DNA from: a virus
Length of the DNA stretch: 64,000 nucleotides
Direction: 5' to 3' (one strand)
Virus record (IMG/VR): IMGVR_UViG_3300045988_104412
A program made the translations under genes and the position numbers. The stretch's first letter is position 1, and every line of letters begins with the position of its first letter. The notes under the pieces are model-generated. The model searched no databases and was not told the origin of the DNA. It worked only from the letters and a program-made list of their open reading frames with translations. This document shows, in pieces, positions 7,073-45,835 of this stretch.

Positions 7073-7534
7073 ATGGAAACGAAAGAGATAAAAAAAGAAG
7101 TGTTAGACAAGGAGATAGCTGCATCTGTTCTTAAGACTATTGGTAGCTGCAAAAACGTTACTCCAGAAGAGGCTCAAGCGGCAGTAAAGAATGCTATTGA
7201 CATCGTGGAGAGGGCTTTCGCTGCATTTGCGCAGGGTCAGAACAAAGACGAAGCGCAGCCGCAGGAGCCAGTCGGCGAGTCTTTGGAGACTCGCATTAAT
7301 GATTTTACCCATGCGTTCGAGGCCTACAACCTCTTCACCGTGATACTTGCTAAGTACGAAGGTCGCGAGGTTACTGCCAAACACCTCACCAAAATGGCGA
7401 AGCGCTTCGTGCGTATATGTTTGAAGGGTGTGGACGGTGTAGAACTTGACGACATCCTCACTGAGGTAAAAGTTGATAAGAACGGCAGAGGTCATCTGAC
7501 CTTGTCTTTCCGCAAAATCGTAAAAGAGAAGTAG
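7073..7534 (+). CDS. hypothetical protein (ends in TAG, in frame with the next ORF)
   Basis: 153-aa ORF with stop TAG at 7532..7534. Confidence 0.5.
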   Translation: METKEIKKEVLDKEIAASVLKTIGSCKNVTPEEAQAAVKNAIDIVERAFAAFAQGQNKDEAQPQEPVGESLETRINDFTHAFEAYNLFTVILAKYEGREVTAKHLTKMAKRFVRICLKGVDGVELDDILTEVKVDKNGRGHLTLSFRKIVKEK

Positions 7535-10268: not shown

Positions 10269-11053
10269 TCAGAAAAGAGTAGGCTGCGCCAGCTCCAGTT
10301 TGATGCGCTTGCAAGCCTTGTCGTAATACTCCTTGTTGAGCTCGAAGCCGATGAAGTTGCGCTTCTCGCGGATGGCTGCAATGGCGGTGGTGCCGCTGCC
10401 CATACAGTTGTCTAAGATAGTGTCGCCTTCGTTGGAGTAGGTGCGGATGAGATACTGAATAAGAGCTACTGGCTTTTGGGTGGGATGGATCTTCTCCTTA
10501 TCCCGAATAAATTCGAGTAAATTTATAGGGAAACGAGAACCATCACTTACTGTCACCGCTCCTCCATTTTGCGCTTGACATTTTCCTCGTACCATTGCAG
10601 CGTCTTTTCGTTGAATGCCATTTTTGCAGGCATAAGGCTTGCACCCCTTAATCATTTGAGGATGATACTCCATATACATTTTTTCTTGCTTTCAGTTGTT
10701 GCAGCCATTCCGAAAACACATATATCCTCTGTAATCTTCAATGGTTGATGATGGGAATTTAAGTAATTAGTACCGCTCTCTTTTTTCCATATCCAATTAT
10801 ACTTATACATATCTATGTTCGACATGATAAGCGCAGACGTGAAAGGTTGCTGACTAAACAAGACTATAGCACCAGTATTCTTTATGATTCTCTTGTATTG
10901 CTCCCACAACTTATCAAATGGAAGCACGCTATCCCAAGCGCAAGCAGTAGTACCATACGGCAAATCGCACACGATGCAATCCACGCTCCCGTCCGGGATC
11001 CTTTTCATTCCTTCCAGACAGTCTTCATTATATATCTTATTCAGTTCTATCAT
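10269..11053 (-). CDS. beta-class amino-DNA methyltransferase (N6-adenine or N4-cytosine), interrupted by a frameshift in a 6-nt homopolymer
   Basis: The N-terminal ORF carries motif IV as DLPYG (DPPY-like). The C-terminal ORF carries HPTQKPVAL and motif I as DNCMGSGTTAIAA. The two frames meet at T6 (10679..10684; A6 on the coding strand). One extra A would give a single reading frame. Confidence 0.75.
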
Positions 11054-11075
11054 GCTTTGTTACTTTGCAAATCTA

Positions 11076-11670
11076 TCAGTTAAACCATTTCACAGTTGTC
11101 TCGCCCTTATATCCCTTCTCCCACACGAACCATGCGTAGGCGGCAGCGCTGCCCTTTATTGCATCGAAATCGCCGTTGGGTGCGCATTTCAGTCTTGATG
11201 AGCTTACCCAAACACGAATGGGGGGGGGTAGAACGGAACAGCGCGCGGCGTGCCTTGCCTTCGAGGAAAGTCAGCTTTAGGAACATCGCCACTTTCTTTC
11301 TTTCGGGAATGATGCTCAGAGCCTTCTCAACGAACTGCTGCGCATATTTGTAGGGTGGATTGGTCACGATGTTTCCGTCCCACGCCAAGTTGTCTATTGC
11401 AAGGAAGTCAGCCACCTCGCCGTAACCTCTATCCACAAGGTCGCGGCTCACCACCTCGTACCCTGCCGCCTTCAGCACCTCGCTTATGTGTCCTTCGCCA
11501 CACGCAGGTTCCAATATTCTACCGTCGAATTGTTCCAACCGGCAAAGCCACTCCGTAGCTTTTGGCTCCGTAGCGTAATAGTCCTCACGCTGTCGTTCTC
11601 CGTCAGCATGATTACTCGCTCCTAATGTCTTGAACACGGCAGCCGAGCCGCCCACCCAGTCCTTAGCCAT
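11076..11670 (-). CDS. N6-adenine DNA methyltransferase (motif I then NPPY), interrupted by a frameshift in a G9/C9 tract
   Basis: EPACGEGH (motif I) and TNPPYKY (motif IV) are present. After the C9 run (plus-strand G9 at 11220..11228) the listed frame looks like nonsense. The alternative frame reads ...NGDFDAIKGSAAAYAWFVWEKGYKGETTVKWFN, ending at 11076. C8 would restore the frame. Confidence 0.7.
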
Positions 11671-12064: not shown

Positions 12065-13334
12065 TTAAAATTCGCCAAAATCCAGTTTCATCTGTTGAAA
12101 TTTCTCGGCATACCATTGTCTGGATGATTTGCCAGAAATCCACCAGTCGTAGATGTTCTCCGCTATTTCGTTTTCTTGCTCCTCTGTCAAGCGGTCAGAA
12201 GAGGAGCTGTCCGAAAACCCAATGCGGCGAGTCCACACACCGGTGTTCCTTCGGACAGGTCTTCCAGTTACAGACTGTCCGCATCCACTGTTTACAAATG
12301 CGGAACGTCGGCATTGCCGCTTCTCGTATTTTACCCCCCAGTCGGATTGTTTGTAGAATCGAGCTGGATCCAATGTTCCGGGTCGGGATGCTTGATGTAG
12401 CCGCCTGCGTCCTGAGCAATTCTCTGACGTTTCTGAGAGGCATCCAGTCCTTGTGGATGTTCCACCAGATGTATTCTTTTTTGAATACCCCCCCGTTTCG
12501 GATGGCCTTAATCGCCTTAATCCAGTTTCTCTTTACATGTGGATAGCGTTCGTTTTCTATCATCTTTTGCTTATGCGAACTCATTGGACAGCCGATGCAA
12601 CCTATGCGGTGCCATCCTTCGTCGTAGAGCGAGCAATGCGGAACTTTCACAACATCATTAAGAAATTCCCATACGTCTTGCTCGGTCCAATAGATAATGG
12701 GCGAAATCAGTAGACTCTCTTTGCCGTGGATGCAGCCTAACGTCTGCTCCTCGTCGGCATTGGTGATGTTCACTCCGTCCTCTCTTGACTTTCGCCTTAT
12801 GCGTTTAGCCTTCTGCTCTTGTCTATACTCTTCAAGACCATCGAGGTCGCCGCTAAACTTTCGATTGTTTATCTCCACCTCGTTGCGCTTTGCCCGGCGC
12901 GAACTCTCTGCCTTACGTATGCCGATAAGCGTAACCTTGCCAGCACCTGCCGTTTCCTTGTATTCAGCGCAGCACCAACGCACACGCATAGTTGGCAAAA
13001 TCTGTCTTTCTACGGCACTTTGAAAGATGGATTTACCAGGCTTGTTTAGTTCCACCTCGGGATAGTTTTTCTTCACGAAGCGTATCACTTCGGGCGGGTC
13101 AACGCTCGTAAGATTCATGTGACCTTGAAACCTTACCCCCGCTAACTATGCGATATGGTAGAGAGCCTGAGAATCTTTGCCGCCGCTAAACGCCAAAAAA
13201 TAACCTTGCTCGGCATCATAGTTGAGAGCAATCTTCTCCGCCTTTTGCAACAATTCCACCGAGTGAAGCATTTTCTTTCGCAATCGTGCCGAAGCACGGT
13301 TTAAGGCTTCGGCAAGCGTAATTTTGATATTCAT
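12065..13334 (-). CDS. PP-loop ATPase / PAPS-reductase-family protein, interrupted by an in-frame TAG; the 3-prime third is ambiguous across frames at G/C tracts
   Basis: The N-terminal piece has the PP-loop AFSGGKDS. TAG at 13146..13148 is in frame with the continuation LAGVRFQGHMNLTSVDPPEV...GIRKAESSRR. C7 (12488..12494) and C6 (12334..12339) lie where alternative frames are open. Total span is about 423 codons. Confidence 0.6.
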
Positions 13335-13532: not shown

Positions 13533-14543
13533 TTAGAAGGAAGCGTTTATTCCGTAATTCCTCAAATACTCCTCGCACCTGAAGTCCTTTCTTGGTGAGA
13601 AGTCCTTGAAATTGGTAGTACAGAAAATCATTCGCTTATTGCACCAGCGTGCCAGATCCTTTTGCCATTCCGGAACAACGTGATTAGGATTCACGGGGTC
13701 ACGGTATGGCTGAGCGTAAGCATAAACCGCCCTACCTTCGTGAGTCTTGCGAAACCGTTGTAGACGTTTCCACCAATAGTGTAGCCGATGATAGCATTCT
13801 TCAAAGTTGTTCTTGCCGCCTATCATGGTATAGAGAAAGTATTCGCCCCGGAATCCTGCCGCATTGATAAGTTGCATGGCTCGTTCACAATATGCTATCT
13901 GTGCCGTGGTGTCGCAACCAAAGCGGATGCGAGAGTCTATCCATTTCACTTTCCCTAACAGCTCGGCATATTCGGGAGTGACAAGCCGTGCATCCATCGC
14001 CTGATTGAAGTCGATATGCAGACCGAGGTCGATTATCTTCTTGAGCTGCTCCTTTGCATAGTCGCCCGCCGCAAGAATGTTGTTGTCCATCAGCACAACA
14101 TGCGTGCGCCCCTCTATGGCAATTTCTTCTATATCCATGTAAGGACGTATGCGCCCCTCCTTTTTCGGAACAACACACCAGAAGCATTTGTTAGGGCACC
14201 CCTCGGTAAGTTTGCCTACGGCTTGATTTTTCGGTAGCCAAGGGTACATCGCGTAGAGAGGTTGGAGCTTGTCTATCTCGTCGGGCAGACGCTTATAGAT
14301 GTCGTAGCCCGTGCCACCCTTCTCCAGTCGGTCGTAGGAGAACTGCCGAAAGTCGATGTCGGGCGAAAAGTTGAAAACCTTGCTGGCATACAGTATGTCG
14401 TAATGATGCCTGTCGAAAAGGTCGGTAGGCTGTGCCCATTCCACTTCATCGCCCTGCGTCGTGTGCCAACGGGCAATCTTGCCGAGATCCACGTTAGGGT
14501 ATATCGTAGCTCCCCATTTCTTTTTGCCGTGTCGCCCATCCAC
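13533..14543 (-). CDS. radical SAM domain protein
   Basis: CxxxCxxC cluster in TEGCPNKCFWCVVP; 336 aa. Confidence 0.65.
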   Translation of the reverse strand: MDGRHGKKKWGATIYPNVDLGKIARWHTTQGDEVEWAQPTDLFDRHHYDILYASKVFNFSPDIDFRQFSYDRLEKGGTGYDIYKRLPDEIDKLQPLYAMYPWLPKNQAVGKLTEGCPNKCFWCVVPKKEGRIRPYMDIEEIAIEGRTHVVLMDNNILAAGDYAKEQLKKIIDLGLHIDFNQAMDARLVTPEYAELLGKVKWIDSRIRFGCDTTAQIAYCERAMQLINAAGFRGEYFLYTMIGGKNNFEECYHRLHYWWKRLQRFRKTHEGRAVYAYAQPYRDPVNPNHVVPEWQKDLARWCNKRMIFCTTNFKDFSPRKDFRCEEYLRNYGINASF

Positions 14544-41646: not shown

Positions 41647-42216
41647 ATGAAGATAAAAAACAAGGAATTGTTAAGAAAATATTCCCTTTACGAGAGTGGC
41701 GTTTGGACGAAACCTCGCAATTTCCCTCTACTGTGGGATGCAGCAAAGCGTCGCATAGGATGGAGGTGTGACGTGCTCCGCTGTTGCGCTAACTACAACA
41801 AAATTGCTTTATTGGATAACAAAGTGCTTCTTGACTTTTGCGACCCGAAGAAGTTTCACTTTCCCCAAAAGCAGCGCATTGACCCTCGTGTTTTTGACCC
41901 GAGATGGGATTTGTCCCATGAATATTATGTCGTAAGGAAGAAAAACAATCGGTATAAGGTTGTTCTGAATAAGTTCAAAAGGCCTTCCGTCGGAAGAACC
42001 TTGGTGGTAGATACAAAGAGAGGTTATATCCGTAGGATTGGCGACAAGGTATGGTATCATCCAGATTATATGGATTTCGGCTGTGAAACCTGTGCTGACT
42101 TCGGAACCTGCCGGTCTGGTCATTACGACAAGAGTTTTTGTGCGGTGGCTGCAAAGTGCGGACTCGGTCACGGTAATACCTGGCAGGAAGTAAGAGAAAA
42201 CAATGACCAACATTAA
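41647..42216 (+). CDS. hypothetical Cys-rich protein
   Basis: 189-aa ORF; C-terminal part contains CETCADFGTCRSGH. Confidence 0.5.
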   Translation: MKIKNKELLRKYSLYESGVWTKPRNFPLLWDAAKRRIGWRCDVLRCCANYNKIALLDNKVLLDFCDPKKFHFPQKQRIDPRVFDPRWDLSHEYYVVRKKNNRYKVVLNKFKRPSVGRTLVVDTKRGYIRRIGDKVWYHPDYMDFGCETCADFGTCRSGHYDKSFCAVAAKCGLGHGNTWQEVRENNDQH

Positions 42217-42337
42217 GATTTCGGTACATCCCGTTAGTCATCGGCTCGAATGGCGAGGATGGGGGGGTAGTTTCTCGCCCGCCCTTCGAGCCACCGACTA
42301 CAAATGCCCACACTGCATAATGATTGAATATGACTGA
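42203..42337 (+). CDS. C5-MTase TRD-like mini-ORF M1 (44 aa)
   Basis: Hand translation MTNIKISVHPVSHRLEWRGWGGSFSPALRATDYKCPHCIMIEYD. SPALRATDYK resembles the TRD core (sPTLtA.dyK). Contains a G7 tract (42261..42267) that is in frame. Its ATG overlaps the upstream gene end. Confidence 0.45.
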   Translation: MTNIKISVHPVSHRLEWRGWGGSFSPALRATDYKCPHCIMIEYD

Positions 42338-42646
42338 CCCTCACTACAAGCGCGGCACTATCCGCAAGGATGGCAAGCTGTATGGCCGCTATCCCGACGG
42401 CTCGCTCTATCGCATCTACTCCACCACCGACCGACCGTTTCTTCAGTTGGTGGACCGAGAGGGCGAGACGTTCCTTCGCATACGCCAAGCCACCGAGCTG
42501 GGCTATACCGACTGTCCCTGCCCAGGAGCTGCCGACCTAAGTTATCCGTCCTCGGCTCTGAGGCGCAGTCGGACGGTTGGGGGGTTAAGTTGGTAAACGC
42601 TCTGACCGCAGTAAGTAGCGGAATCTGCGTGTTTGTTGAATTATAA
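42330..42646 (+). CDS. C5-MTase TRD-like mini-ORF M2 (about 105 aa), out of frame at a G6 tract
   Basis: ...RIRQATELGYTDCPCPGAADLSYPSSALRRSRTVGG, then after G6 (42579..42584) the alternative frame reads VKLVNALTAVSSGICVFVEL. This is the classical pattern atkkGY...sRRgRVg..a.aLTa. G7 would join the frames. Confidence 0.5.
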
Positions 42647-42660
42647 AAAGAATAAGATTT

Positions 42661-43035
42661 ATGAAAAACAAAAACCGACTACCTAACGTGATATTCATGT
42701 CACCGAAGATTTCTGAGTTACTGGGAACATTGATAACAGAAGATGGTGCCTATATTGAATCAGACAGCAAAGGAATAGATATTGGAAATTTGTCTTCATT
42801 TGATGACGATATTGACAAAAAATCCGAATATCGCAACATTTTTCAACTGTGGCATCCTGCCAGAGAACAACCGCATTGCACAGGATCGCTTCTCTGCTGG
42901 CGACTCGGTGGCACATTCTTCGTGCATGAACATTATGATCATAATGAACAGAATTGGCGAATGTTTATCAGCGAATACGAAGTGCGGCGTTATTGTTATA
43001 TTGGCAACTTGGAACCAACCTGTTCTTTTGTTTGA
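42661..43035 (+). CDS. hypothetical protein inserted in the TRD array
   Basis: 124-aa AT-rich ORF. Its 3-prime end overlaps another frame that ends in a TRD-tail-like ...ECLSANTKCGVIVILATWNQPVLLFEEYD (stop 43046..43048). Confidence 0.4.
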   Translation: MKNKNRLPNVIFMSPKISELLGTLITEDGAYIESDSKGIDIGNLSSFDDDIDKKSEYRNIFQLWHPAREQPHCTGSLLCWRLGGTFFVHEHYDHNEQNWRMFISEYEVRRYCYIGNLEPTCSFV

Positions 43036-43040
43036 AGAAT

Positions 43041-43172
43041 ATGACTAATCTTGACTTCTACCAATATCCCCGTGGCTTCAACGACGGAGGCAGATTAAAC
43101 ACAGCTATTTGTCCGACCGTGTCAACTTACTCGTGGCCGCAAAATGTATTTCTGATTGAAGAATATGAATAA
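43041..43172 (+). CDS. C5-MTase TRD-like mini-ORF M3 (43 aa)
   Basis: MTNLDFYQYPRGFNDGGRLNTAICPTVSTYSWPQNVFLIEEYE, with the CPTVST core and LIEEYE tail. Confidence 0.45.
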   Translation: MTNLDFYQYPRGFNDGGRLNTAICPTVSTYSWPQNVFLIEEYE

Positions 43173-43318
43173 CATCACTATAGACTACCGCATCCCGAAA
43201 GTCGGGGGGGGTATTTACGCAAGCAACCGCCGAGTTCAATAAAGGAAGCCTAAGCGGACTAAGCCGCTGTCTGAAGGCTAATGTGAACGATGCAGGAGTA
43301 ATGATTGAATACGAATAA
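43165..43318 (+). CDS. C5-MTase TRD-like mini-ORF M4 (about 50 aa), out of frame at a G8 tract
   Basis: MNNITIDYRIPKVGG, then after G8 (43204..43211) the other frame reads VFTQATAEFNKGSLSGLSRCLKANVNDAGVMIEYE. G7 would join the frames. Confidence 0.5.
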
Positions 43319-43331
43319 AAGTAAGACAACA

Positions 43332-44651
43332 ATGATCACAAAACTCAACTTCACCGACCGCACCATCAAGAGCTATGCCATCCGCAAGCTCACGCCCAAG
43401 GAGTGTTTTCGTCTGATGGGCGTTCGCGACAATGTAATCAGTACGATGCAGAGCAGCAATGCCCAGGCAGCCGAGCGAGTACCCGATTGGAAGGGCAAGG
43501 GCAAACCCGAAGACATGGCTATATCAGCGTCACAGCAGTACAAATTAGCCGGCAACTCAATTGTAGTGGATGTGTTGGCCCATATCTACGAGCAGTTGTT
43601 CTATCCGAAGCCGAATCAGCGCAAATTCAGGCAACTCTCGCTCTTCACCGACATCGGCGACTATCTGCCCGACATGCCGAAGAACTTAGCCAACTCTGGT
43701 AAGGAAAAGATTTTCCTTACCACGTTCTCCGGCTACGACTCGCAGCTCATGGCAGCCGACTTGCTAAAGTCTTGGCGCCCCGATTTTCATTGGACGTGCG
43801 TCGGATGGAGCGACATCGACAAATATGCTTGTCAGATGCACGACCTCGTATTTCCTCAGTTTGCCGACTGCGCCTTGGGCGACATCACCAAGATTGACTG
43901 GCACGAAGTAAAATGCTCACTCGAAAGTCGCGAAGTGGATCTTTTCACCTATTCGTCGCCATGCCAGGACATATCGCAAGCCGGCAAGCAGATGGGACTC
44001 AAAGAAGGCAGCGATACCCGAAGCGCTTTGCTCTGGCATGTAGCCAAAGCCGTGGAGGTGTTGCGTCCCAAATATCTCTTGCAGGAGAACGTAGCGGCGC
44101 TGGTTAGCCAGAAGTTCATGCCCGACTTCCAGAAGTGGCTTGACAAGCTCTCGTCGCTCGGCTACGTTAGCAAGTGGAGTCGGCTGAATGCTAAGAATTA
44201 CGGTGTGCCGCAAAATCGCGATAGAGTGTTTTGTCTTTCAATGCGCAAAGACGTAGCCTTCGACTATCAGTTTCCCGAACCATTTTTGCTGAAAACCCGA
44301 CTGGAGGACGTGCTGGAAGAAGAAGTGTCCGACCGCTATTTCCTCAAGGACGATGCCGTGAGCAAGTTCCTCAAGGCAAATGACTCTGACAACGCCCTAT
44401 TTCTTCAGTTTGACCTGCCACCGACACACGAGGCTGCAATGTTCTTGAAAACGTGGCTTACGTTGTGGATGCAAGCAGCCGATGGTTGGAAAATGACATC
44501 TACAAGTCTCCAGCTCGCCCTTTATTCGGCAAAGCAGAAAATGGAGCAGTCTTATTCCGTGTTCATGGATAAGGGTGTGGCTGCGTTAGGCGATGAGTTT
44601 CAACGGTTGTTCAAGGAGAATATGGAGAGGAAGAAGGATGGAGACAAATAA
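43332..44651 (+). CDS. DNA (cytosine-5)-methyltransferase catalytic core, circularly permuted (motifs IX-X precede I-VIII), no internal TRD recognised
   Basis: In order: IRKLTPKECFRLMG (IX), AGNSIVVDV (X), the linker with QLSLF, TFSGYDS (I), SSPCQDIS (IV), LQENV (VI), PQNRDRVF (VIII), then an atypical helical tail of about 115 aa. Confidence 0.8.
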   Translation: MITKLNFTDRTIKSYAIRKLTPKECFRLMGVRDNVISTMQSSNAQAAERVPDWKGKGKPEDMAISASQQYKLAGNSIVVDVLAHIYEQLFYPKPNQRKFRQLSLFTDIGDYLPDMPKNLANSGKEKIFLTTFSGYDSQLMAADLLKSWRPDFHWTCVGWSDIDKYACQMHDLVFPQFADCALGDITKIDWHEVKCSLESREVDLFTYSSPCQDISQAGKQMGLKEGSDTRSALLWHVAKAVEVLRPKYLLQENVAALVSQKFMPDFQKWLDKLSSLGYVSKWSRLNAKNYGVPQNRDRVFCLSMRKDVAFDYQFPEPFLLKTRLEDVLEEEVSDRYFLKDDAVSKFLKANDSDNALFLQFDLPPTHEAAMFLKTWLTLWMQAADGWKMTSTSLQLALYSAKQKMEQSYSVFMDKGVAALGDEFQRLFKENMERKKDGDK

Positions 44652-44659
44652 CCCACTTC

Positions 44660-44786
44660 ATGCTATACAAAATGGGGGGGTACGATTGCACCTGCTATCA
44701 CCTCCCACTATTTCAAAGCGAGCGTGCGAGACTTTCTTTTTGCACTTGCCATACCTCACTGCTGTTTAATAATAGAGTATGATTGA
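44660..44786 (+). CDS. C5-MTase TRD-like mini-ORF M5 (about 41 aa), out of frame at a G7 tract; its TRD frame continues the core ORF frame after TAA
   Basis: MLYKMGG, then after G7 (44674..44680) the other frame reads TIAPAITSHYFKASVRDFLFALAIPHCCLIIEYD. G6 would join the frames. The same frame is contiguous with the core across TAA 44649..44651. Confidence 0.45.
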
Positions 44787-44916
44787 CAAGATTGGCAATA
44801 TTTATTACGACAAGTGGAAGTCGGGCTTCGATGGTAATATCTGCGGCACGAAAGGTATATGCCCTCCCCTAACCTTGTCAACACAAACGGGGAGGGTAAT
44901 GATTGAATATGCTTAG
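44779..44916 (+). CDS. C5-MTase TRD-like mini-ORF M6 (45 aa)
   Basis: MIDKIGNIYYDKWKSGFDGNICGTKGICPPLTLSTQTGRVMIEYA; its ATG overlaps the M5 stop (ATGATTGA). Confidence 0.5.
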   Translation: MIDKIGNIYYDKWKSGFDGNICGTKGICPPLTLSTQTGRVMIEYA

Positions 44917-45061
44917 GAACCCTCGCCCTATCGTTCTCGGCTCCTACAGCCCCTCGCAGAACGGCATCATAGTGTCGCCTCATGGCATAGCGCTGTGTAT
45001 AACTGGAGGAGGTAAGGGGCACGATGTGGATAAACCCAAAATTCTCATAGAGTATGATTGA
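44909..45061 (+). CDS. C5-MTase TRD-like mini-ORF M7 (50 aa)
   Basis: MLRNPRPIVLGSYSPSQNGIIVSPHGIALCITGGGKGHDVDKPKILIEYD. Confidence 0.5.
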   Translation: MLRNPRPIVLGSYSPSQNGIIVSPHGIALCITGGGKGHDVDKPKILIEYD

Positions 45062-45236
45062 CTGTTCAATTCTCGTCCACTACCGCACCGAGGAAGCAAA
45101 AGCCTTCCGCCGTGAGCATGGTGATCGTGGAGGATGCAAATACGGCGATAAGTATCACCGCCCCAGTCCGTATCCGTGGTGCAATTCGATAACAACAGTA
45201 ACAAAAGACAACCTATTATGCTACGTTTTCGCATAG
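45054..45236 (+). CDS. C5-MTase TRD-like mini-ORF M8 (60 aa)
   Basis: Listed ORF; ...CNSITTVTKDNLL matches the sNTiTTvqKDNl TRD signature. Confidence 0.5.
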   Translation: MIDCSILVHYRTEEAKAFRREHGDRGGCKYGDKYHRPSPYPWCNSITTVTKDNLLCYVFA

Positions 45237-45382
45237 CAGCCTTCCGAGGCCGTGACCCCGATAATCCGTCCGACCGCAAGCATCCCTCCAACGGACGCTT
45301 CTGTCAGAGAATGGAGATAAACGGGGAGGGTACAACAAACACCCTCACCTCAGTAGGCAAAGACAATATGTTATATATATAG
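45218..45382 (+). CDS. C5-MTase TRD-like mini-ORF M9 (54 aa)
   Basis: MLRFRIAAFRGRDPDNPSDRKHPSNGRFCQRMEINGEGTTNTLTSVGKDNMLYI, the classical RiaasRGR..npsdR...QRlE.n..g.sNTLTsV.KDN pattern. Confidence 0.55.
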   Translation: MLRFRIAAFRGRDPDNPSDRKHPSNGRFCQRMEINGEGTTNTLTSVGKDNMLYI

Positions 45383-45383
45383 T

Positions 45384-45533
45384 ATGAATAGAAAAATACC
45401 ATTTGTACAACGTCTTGCGCTGTTTTGCCCACGTCGGGGGTACTCCACCGCACTGTCCGCACGCTACGACGGATGGGCAGGACTCTACGACGAGCACGGA
45501 CAGCACACCATTGTATTGATAGAATATGATTAG
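45384..45533 (+). CDS. C5-MTase TRD-like mini-ORF M10 (49 aa)
   Basis: MNRKIPFVQRLALFCPRRGYSTALSARYDGWAGLYDEHGQHTIVLIEYD. Confidence 0.45.
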   Translation: MNRKIPFVQRLALFCPRRGYSTALSARYDGWAGLYDEHGQHTIVLIEYD

Positions 45534-45672
45534 ATTGCAAATCTTAAAATCTCTTTTCCTCACAATATGCGCCACCATTCTTGCGCATTACCACAAGGAG
45601 GGAGCAGGCAATATCATACAAGGCTCAAGTTCGCTCGTCAAAGCACCAGCAGTATTGATAGAATATGATTGA
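45526..45672 (+). CDS. C5-MTase TRD-like mini-ORF M11 (48 aa)
   Basis: MIRLQILKSLFLTICATILAHYHKEGAGNIIQGSSSLVKAPAVLIEYD (the cPTi.A.yhKgg pattern). Confidence 0.5.
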   Translation: MIRLQILKSLFLTICATILAHYHKEGAGNIIQGSSSLVKAPAVLIEYD

Positions 45673-45835
45673 CAAATATTACATCGGATGGGTACGCAGC
45701 GGCAAGGGTCTCGTAAAGAGCCGACCGCGCAAGCGGATAGCCAATGCCGTGACGACAATGGTCGGGAGAGGTATTGCCGACCATCGCGACGGACTGGGCA
45801 ACACCACACCGCATATAGTATATAAATTTGAGTAA
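45665..45835 (+). CDS. C5-MTase TRD-like mini-ORF M12 (56 aa)
   Basis: MIDKYYIGWVRSGKGLVKSRPRKRIANAVTTMVGRGIADHRDGLGNTTPHIVYKFE. Confidence 0.45.
   Translation: MIDKYYIGWVRSGKGLVKSRPRKRIANAVTTMVGRGIADHRDGLGNTTPHIVYKFE

Follow-up and report, generated by a model that had tools for sequence, protein, structure and literature searches.

A probable multispecific cytosine-C5 methylase built from parts, with target recognition domains individually switched by poly-G tracts, in a viral genome

The 64,000-nt stretch of viral DNA analysed here (the window; IMG/VR record IMGVR_UViG_3300045988_104412) contains, in and around the piece at positions 42,217 to 44,786, a cytosine-C5 DNA methylase locus that is probably a multispecific enzyme built from parts, with target recognition domains (TRDs) that are individually switched by poly-G tracts; we place the probability of this reading at roughly 0.7. 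A circularly permuted methylase core that lacks a TRD of its own is accompanied by a series of small overlapping open reading frames (ORFs), the modules M1 to M12, four upstream and eight downstream, each of which specifies one TRD. For comparison, a set of 81 loci (given L numbers below) was assembled from the window and 80 IMG/VR relatives whose cores are 66-95% identical, and the orthology of tracts was set by flanks that are 92-100% identical. The parts of the locus, all on the + strand, are listed below, with lengths in amino acids (aa).

42203..42337, +, TRD mini-ORF M1: 44 aa, ends in IMIEYD and a stop; G7, in frame (ON)
42330..42646, +, TRD mini-ORF M2: 105 aa when repaired; G6, out of frame, needs +1; its start ATG overlaps the M1 stop
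42661..43035, +, conserved 124-aa ORF inside the upstream array: function unassigned, not TRD-like
43041..43172, +, TRD mini-ORF M3: 43 aa; Gly-Gly encoded without a homopolymer; in frame
43165..43318, +, TRD mini-ORF M4: 50 aa when repaired; G8, out of frame, needs G7
43332..44651, +, circularly permuted C5 cytosine methylase core: PF00145, E=3.6e-51
44638..44786, +, TRD mini-ORF M5: 49 aa when repaired; G7, out of frame, needs G8; its start ATG overlaps the core stop
44779-44916, +, TRD mini-ORF M6: in frame; interrupted tract GGGGAGGG then TA at 44889-44896
44909-45061, +, TRD mini-ORF M7: in frame
45054-45236, +, TRD mini-ORF M8: in frame
45218-45382, +, TRD mini-ORF M9: in frame; interrupted tract GGGGAGGG then TA at 45323-45330
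45384-45533, +, TRD mini-ORF M10: in frame; G5 then TA at 45436-45440
45526-45672, +, TRD mini-ORF M11: in frame
45665-45835, +, TRD mini-ORF M12: in frame

Identity of the modules and of the core

The modules had been called TRDs in a first-pass annotation made from the letters of the window, and both their homology to tandem TRDs and the PF00145 matches bear this out: the mini-ORFs are true TRDs, homologous to the tandem TRDs of multispecific C5 methylases. Most of them end in phi-phi-E-Y-[DE] or in V-E-L. M9, M3, M11, M2, M4, M5, and M6 align to the TRDs of the methylase of Dulem virus 40, with identities of 51% over 45 aa for M9, 42% over 33 aa for M3, and 48% over 31 aa for M11. A HMMER search with M9 (54 aa) yielded 447 proteins at E<=1e-3 among 1.84 billion representatives, including stand-alone proteins of 51-76 aa and proteins of 200-500 aa. 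Of the 10 large matches tested, nine belong to PF00145, with the match falling in the variable region in those whose motifs were mapped. With M2, tblastn gave weak matches, nearly all of them in C5 methylase genes of phages; Streptococcus phages account for 50 of the 51 records, and every listed Streptococcus match but one is annotated as a methylase. The corresponding tblastn search of phages with M7 gave no match, and a Pfam search of ten modules gave none either, because the TRD region is not modelled in Pfam.

Motifs I, IV (PCQ), VI (ENV), VIII, IX, and X of PF00145 are all present in the core, in an order that departs from the canonical I to X: motifs IX-X (aa 18-77) come first, motifs I-VIII (aa 132-298) follow, and a helical tail of about 100 aa completes the protein. 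The landmarks are RKLTPKECFRLMG at aa 18, GNSI at aa 74, FSGYD at aa 132, PCQ at aa 210, ENV at aa 252, and QNRDR at aa 294. In alignments with a canonical enzyme, core residues 15-111 correspond to canonical residues 284-356 and core residues 132-341 to canonical residues 10-202. No TRD lies within the core ORF, and the TRDs are found in the neighbouring ORFs. The core is a circularly permuted C5 methylase without its own TRD.

Poly-G tracts and their reading frames

Four poly-G tracts, with G on the coding strand in every case, lie within 2.4 kb: G7 at 42261-42267 (M1), G6 at 42579-42584 (M2), G8 at 43204-43211 (M4), and G7 at 44674-44680 (M5). Inspection of the sequence confirmed these coordinates as first reported, together with the count of exactly eight G/C runs of at least 6 in the window and their positions. 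The number of such runs is no higher than chance, since the window has 16 copies of GGGGGG (both strands, overlapping copies included), whereas dinucleotide shuffles have 10.2 +/- 3.6 and reach 16 in 10 of 100 cases. Unlike this bare count, the placement and coding of the tracts are non-random. Each of the four encodes a Gly-Gly(-Gly) loop positioned 2-4 residues N-terminal of the TRD hallmark x-[LI]-[TRS]-[AS], as in WGG-SFSPALRA, GG-VKLVNALTA, GG-VFTQATA, and GGG-TIAPAITS. Glycine is least often encoded by GGG (4.4%) in the 48 ordinary ORFs of the genome, and only 1 of 64 Gly-Gly pairs is encoded by GGG-GGG.

Three of the four tracts leave their modules (M2, M4, and M5) out of frame. This agrees with the first-pass annotation, whose frame assignments hold for M1 (in frame), M2 (needs one more base), and M4 (needs G7) and fail for M5. 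The addition of one base to M2 extends its reading to RTVGGVKLVNALTAVSSGICVFVEL followed by a stop, and the M2 ortholog of L006 has G8 where the window has G6+T, within flanks that are 100% identical. M4 is restored by G7, and L050 has precisely this length, in frame. M5 had been said to need G6, which is wrong. Its orthologs that begin with MKKINPCHAIQNGGGTIAP (L067, L066, and L014) place its start at the ATG at 44638; orthologs read M-K-K-I-N-P-C-H-A-I-Q-N-G-G-G-T-I-A-P in a single frame with either G8 (L067, L066) or an interrupted tract (L014, L017, L043), and they are out of frame at G7 and G9. Because of these reading frames, and because the M5 leader aligns to the beginning of the TRD in a related enzyme, the start of M5 is assigned to ATG 44638, from which the module is in frame at G8 (or G5/G11). 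As a control, A/T runs of at least 7 inside long ORFs (5041, 5904, 7090, 22488, 47161) are in frame.

The tracts also have a characteristic flank. In the window, G runs of at least 5 are nearly always followed by TA (3858, 11224, 12332, 12486, 13134, 20399, 38701, 42263, 43207, 44676, 45436, 55111, 60985); GGGGGTA occurs 13 times against 2.5 expected, a number reached by none of 100 shuffles. Among the related arrays, TA follows a growing share of runs as they lengthen: 12% of those of G3, 20% of G4, 31% of G5, and 66% of G6 or longer. Every codon phase is represented among the TAs, as are both strands with respect to the gene, and the TA therefore looks like a DNA-level preference. The idea that it supplies an immediate stop (TAG/TAA) after the tract was rejected: it is true for M1, M2, and the NPPY-type methylase gene described below and fails for M4, M5, and the gene resembling a 3'-phosphoadenosine-5'-phosphosulfate (PAPS) reductase.

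Variation of the tracts among relatives

Arrays in 73 of the 81 loci have 1-7 tracts of G6 or longer, and at least 10 TRD families share the structural position of the tract. Rather than being invariant and out of frame in all relatives, a pattern that had been named in advance as speaking against switching, orthologous tracts vary and occur in both frames. The M1 tract is G4, G5, G6, G7, G8, G10, G11, or interrupted in its 38 orthologs, half of which (19) are in frame and half (19) out. For M2, orthologs with G8 or G11 are in frame and those with G6 or G9 are out; for M4, the corresponding alleles are G7 and GGGGGCG in frame, and G6 and G8 out. The closest comparison is between L006 and L007, which have 0 substitutions in 13,341 bp and only four differences, all of them in the lengths of G/C tracts; the pattern is the same for L063 and L064. 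Overall, 47% of G6 tracts and 48% of tracts of G7 or more are off the modal length in orthologs, compared with 2-7% of A/T runs of length 6 and 18-27% of A/T runs of length 7 or more. By a heuristic call, 66 of 190 tracts (35%) are in frame, near a random third, versus 78% of G5 runs.

Interrupted, seemingly "locked" alleles are present in some lineages (GGGCGGG, GGGGAGG, and GGGGGTGG in modules; CCCCACCC in the NPPY methylase), and L053, L054, L068, and L078 are without any tract. At the other extreme, the upstream array of L060 has a G22 tract (L060:66), far longer than any other seen. A C7/C8 tract preceded by TA, apparently non-coding, lies 3' of the array at L006:11198 and L007:11200, and in L010, L011, L015, and L016 at about 11640; as it varies between otherwise identical contigs, it may be a promoter-type switch.

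State of the out-of-frame alleles

A single +/-1 change converts 111 of 124 OFF tracts into a complete canonical module, and the coding sequence downstream of out-of-frame tracts has zero internal stops. The ratio of nonsynonymous to synonymous polymorphism (pN/pS) in the module bodies, compared at pS of about 0.3-0.6, is similarly low in the two states: 0.11 OFF vs 0.11 ON for M1, 0.21 vs 0.14 for M2, and 0.05 vs 0.06 for M5, with 0.26 for M4 (OFF only). A sequence that is constrained while out of frame must have spent much evolutionary time in frame, and this constraint on OFF alleles is the comparative signature of reversible switching. Decay is unlikely because the OFF bodies are stop-free and under the same purifying selection as the ON bodies. 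As in contingency loci, the repeat is inside the reading frame, its length is polymorphic in near-identical genomes, and the frame is toggled with the OFF alleles intact. Together, the variable tracts and the constrained OFF bodies support the original suggestion that the tracts are phase-variable specificity switches.

Layout of the array and its translation

The modules are not joined in tandem in one polypeptide; they are separated by stop codons with an overlapping ATG. The 81 loci contain 818 module ends. In 454 of these an ATG is placed at -5 from the stop (TATGAnTRR), and in 67 the overlap is instead of the ATGA type, TTATGA; 799 have a nearby ATG that opens the next ORF. The identity of the stop varies (TGA, TAA, TAG) and the overlapping ATG is kept, and two unrelated junction types preserve the same overlap. 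All modules are under purifying selection, with pN/pS of 0.16-0.47 at pS 0.25-0.5 (0.16-0.47 likewise for the M6-M12 set), and the mini-ORF layout is kept in the most distant relatives. Because the ATG overlap persists across varying stops and two junction types, and because of the purifying selection and the persistence of the layout in distant relatives, the junctions would represent translational coupling of separate mini-proteins.

A variant of this arrangement is seen in L002, L004, and L065 (around 7353-7374; proteins P0001, P0022, P0174), where no stop codon separates the core from the first tract downstream of it. There, the product depends on the tract length: a core of 459 aa, a core of 462 aa for which the TRD ORF that overlaps it is in frame, or a core-TRD fusion of 472 aa. 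All three phases of the one module exist as predicted proteins (459/460, 462/463, and 472 aa), the fusion being P0174, found among the cluster members. The possibility that this type of module is "on" when fused to the core was considered and discarded, because, as the conserved leader METKDKPPLQAIRGG makes clear, G7 is the length that puts the overlapping ORF in frame.

Proposed mechanism and alternative explanations

In the proposed mechanism, the permuted core without a TRD is flanked by about 12 small overlapping ORFs with one TRD each, which would be translated by termination-reinitiation. In many of these ORFs the Gly-Gly loop that precedes the recognition motif is encoded by GGG GGG (G), creating a G6-G11 homopolymer in which slipped-strand mispairing during phage replication would add or remove bases. 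Each slip would bring the recognition half of one TRD into or out of frame and thus turn one specificity on or off; the core and the other TRDs would be unaffected because every module has its own start. In the genome at hand, M1 is on and M2, M4, and M5 are off, as are the NPPY and N6_N4 methylases. We infer that switching is fast and reversible within the population and that the small TRD proteins act in trans with the core. The pay-off would presumably be methylation matched to the Type II systems of the host, with Type IV systems avoided. A stronger version, in which the C5 enzyme draws on a library of separately translated 45-105-aa TRD subunits, each gated by poly-G, giving up to 2^n repertoires, is more tentative, and we give it slightly less than even odds. 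Such subunits would play a role like that of the HsdS subunit of Type I systems, for a cytosine-C5 enzyme.

Several points weigh against switched, separate TRDs. About two thirds of the tracts are out of frame, as neutral pressure on dispensable genes would give. Known multispecific enzymes hold their TRDs in one chain, and we know of no precedent for a free TRD. Should RNA polymerase or the ribosome slip at the tract, the DNA frame would matter less. An AlphaFold2 model of the core, made with 34 close homologs, has a pLDDT (predicted local distance difference test score) of 35, too low to use. For heterogeneity within a population and for reversibility, the evidence consists of assembled contigs compared across relatives. 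Finally, the in-frame and out-of-frame calls for the 190 tracts follow a heuristic, the longest spanning frame, which is wrong for at least three loci (the L002 type).

Neutral erosion is an unlikely alternative. It would make the tracts weak points in dispensable TRD genes and the out-of-frame copies dead; the roughly 65% of tracts that are out of frame and the lineages without tracts (L053, L054, L068, L078) fit it, and reversion lacks direct evidence. However, the OFF bodies are free of stops, with pN/pS as in ON bodies, and for 90% of OFF tracts a single step would complete the module. Moreover, GGG GGG is strongly disfavoured elsewhere, yet it recurs at one structural position in many TRD families. 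Stable interrupted alleles exist, and since they are available, harmful tracts could easily have been lost.

Equally improbable is a polyprotein, made either by programmed +1 frameshifting at the ...GAA TAT GAn TGA junctions or by transcriptional-slippage rescue at the G tracts, with the DNA frame tuning dosage. From one module to the next the frame mostly shifts by +1 and the junction contains a stop, Dulem virus 40, the nearest relative of known layout, has the same TRDs in one chain, and the fusion allele P0174 exists. Yet the junction, as read from the sequence, has no slippery P-site codon for +1 re-pairing (GAY to AYU), and the stop identity varies with the overlapping ATG kept. The second junction type, TTATGA, retains only the ATG/stop overlap, the signature of termination-reinitiation.

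It is still less probable that the modules are silent cassettes, of which only the core-adjacent TRD is used and the others are moved in by recombination at junction repeats or G tracts. The content and order of modules do vary among relatives, and one TRD body, IIYTIQAGVSS..., is attached to two different leaders, with the tract as the joint. But since the junctions are repeated in direct orientation, recombination would remove modules for good; the distal modules keep their overlapping ATG and their own poly-G switches, which would be pointless if silent; and shuffling of module halves at tracts has one clear case, the remainder being register artefacts.

Least probable of all is homopolymer sequencing or assembly error in genes that are really intact: all frame breaks do sit in homopolymers and metagenome assemblies choose one consensus length, but structural genes with long A/T runs are intact (long ORFs with A7-A8 are in frame), A/T runs of 6 vary by 2-7% as against 47% for G6, the in-frame share of tracts is only 35% over 81 independent assemblies, L006 and L007 differ solely at G/C tracts, lengths range over G4-G11 with one G22, and G7-G9 miscalls this frequent are not expected of a short-read consensus. 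The earlier argument against generic homopolymer error is thus upheld by the L006/L007 pair, the contrast between A/T and G6 variation, and the intact genes with A/T runs.

Relation to known systems

The methylases of SPR, phi3T, rho11s, and H2 contain TRDs of about 40-50 aa with one target each and protect the phage DNA from several restriction systems. According to PMC12707154, which cites Trautner 1996, the TRDs of the multispecific Bacillus phage C5 methylases are arrayed in one polypeptide. The locus in the window is like those of these temperate phages in having one core with several short TRDs, 12 TRD-like modules adjoining the one core. It differs in that the Bacillus phage TRDs lie between motifs VIII and IX and are always expressed, whereas here they are separate mini-ORFs on both sides of the core, many of them gated.

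The closest annotated relative found is the protein pair XCD03592/XCD03591 of Dulem virus 40 (PP511379), with a core that is 40-51% identical. The two-gene methylase of this lemur-gut phage (L081) occupies PP511379 45859-47799. Its motifs are in canonical order, split as I-VIII / TRDs-IX-X. The second protein contains about six tandem TRDs, homologous to M2/M3, M4, M5/M11, M6/M7, and M9, which are in frame in one chain without stop/start junctions. A tandem duplication of a Dulem-like pair followed by fusion would give the layout of the window, that is, TRDs, IX-X fused to I-VIII, and TRDs.

Natural and artificial C5 methylases that are split beside the TRD reassemble non-covalently (PMC5944983). 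Permuted enzymes are also known: in M.BssHII and M.Alw26I, among others, as in the core described here, IX-X precede I-VIII. However, the natural permutants known so far begin in the variable region, with the TRD retained at the N-terminus, and here the TRD is detached from both halves. The layout also differs from that of M.AquI, the beta subunit of which has the TRD and IX-X together; here IX-X are joined to I-VIII in one protein, and only the TRDs are separate. Dulem virus 40 fits the M.AquI layout.

In the phasevarions of Haemophilus, Neisseria, Helicobacter, and Campylobacter, repeats in mod or hsdS toggle the frame and change the methylome. The likeness to the present locus lies in the slippage of a simple repeat in a methylase or specificity gene. 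The bacterial systems are mostly N6-adenine Type I/III, with the switch affecting a whole enzyme or one S subunit, whereas here a virus would have up to 7 switches per locus, each for one C5 TRD. Phages with variable tracts have been described as well. PMC12633550 and PMC12823448 refer to hypermutable G7-G11 tracts and subpopulations in Campylobacter Fletchervirus phages (Sorensen 2021), to contingency loci with short homopolymers in T-even phages (a 2025 preprint), and to a Bordetella phage methylase gene with a poly-G tract, noted in the same preprint. The Fletchervirus and T-even tracts are in receptor-binding, baseplate, or assorted genes, with no array of methylase specificity modules described.

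A literature search turned up no account of TRD mini-genes that are switched one by one and arrayed around a permuted C5 core. The locus appears to combine phase-variable methylation, a form of bacterial bet-hedging, with the multispecific methylase, a phage anti-restriction device. If the switches work in this way, the phage population would constantly sample repertoires of 5-methylcytosine, which bears on how gut phages cope with diverse Type II and with methylation-dependent restriction. If the TRDs are truly free subunits, they would constitute a new C5 methylase architecture and a natural toolkit of swappable specificity modules. Annotation pipelines will call such genes tiny hypothetical ORFs or frameshifted pseudogenes.

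Megablast of the locus against GenBank phages gave zero matches, and the core has thousands of relatives in public metagenomes. The phage family appears to be abundant in the human gut. A scan of bacterial genomes for a host reached metagenome bins only, two labelled Prevotella and the remainder with inconsistent labels; these bins hint at Prevotella as a possible host.

Other DNA-modification genes and neighbouring features

Three genes on the - strand, near the beginning of the window, are also interrupted by or contain homopolymers.

10269..11059, -, N6_N4 (beta-class) DNA methylase: broken at A6 (+ strand 10679-10684); needs A7
11076..11670, -, NPPY-type DNA methylase: broken at G9 (C9 on the coding strand) 11220-11228; needs 8
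12195..13118, -, PAPS-reductase-like gene: G7 12488-12494 and G6 12334-12339 on the coding strand; ORF open through both

When repaired, the NPPY methylase matches phrog_799 end to end (1e-68). In 80 relatives its tract is C8 and in frame 21 times, CCCCACCC/CCCCTCCC and in frame 22 times, C7 and out of frame 11 times, and C9 and out of frame 8 times, the window included. The tract of this methylase, which is unrelated to the C5 system, is a contingency locus in its own right, with CCCCACCC locked in frame. The repaired N6_N4 methylase matches PF01555 over residues 1-219 of 221, and relatives have A7; this break is absent from the list in the first-pass annotation. Its statement that the long G/C runs are concentrated in DNA-modification genes stands, and homopolymer breaks extend to this third methylase. 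The first tract of the PAPS-reductase-like gene ranges over G5-G10 in 15 relatives, and a comparison with PHROGs gave no decision on the frame after it; this gene is probably homopolymer-switched also.

Inside the upstream array, the 124-aa ORF at 42661-43035 is conserved in 13 loci with a pN/pS of 0.41, and a family search with it gave no match. A frame that overlaps it ends in the TRD-like ...LLFEEYD and a stop just 5' of the M3 start, as if the ORF were an insertion into a former TRD. Beside the PAPS-reductase-like gene and the two methylases lies a gene for a radical-SAM (S-adenosylmethionine) protein (phrog_9298, E=6e-82; 13533-14543, -), which suggests a wider DNA-modification cluster at 10-15 kb.

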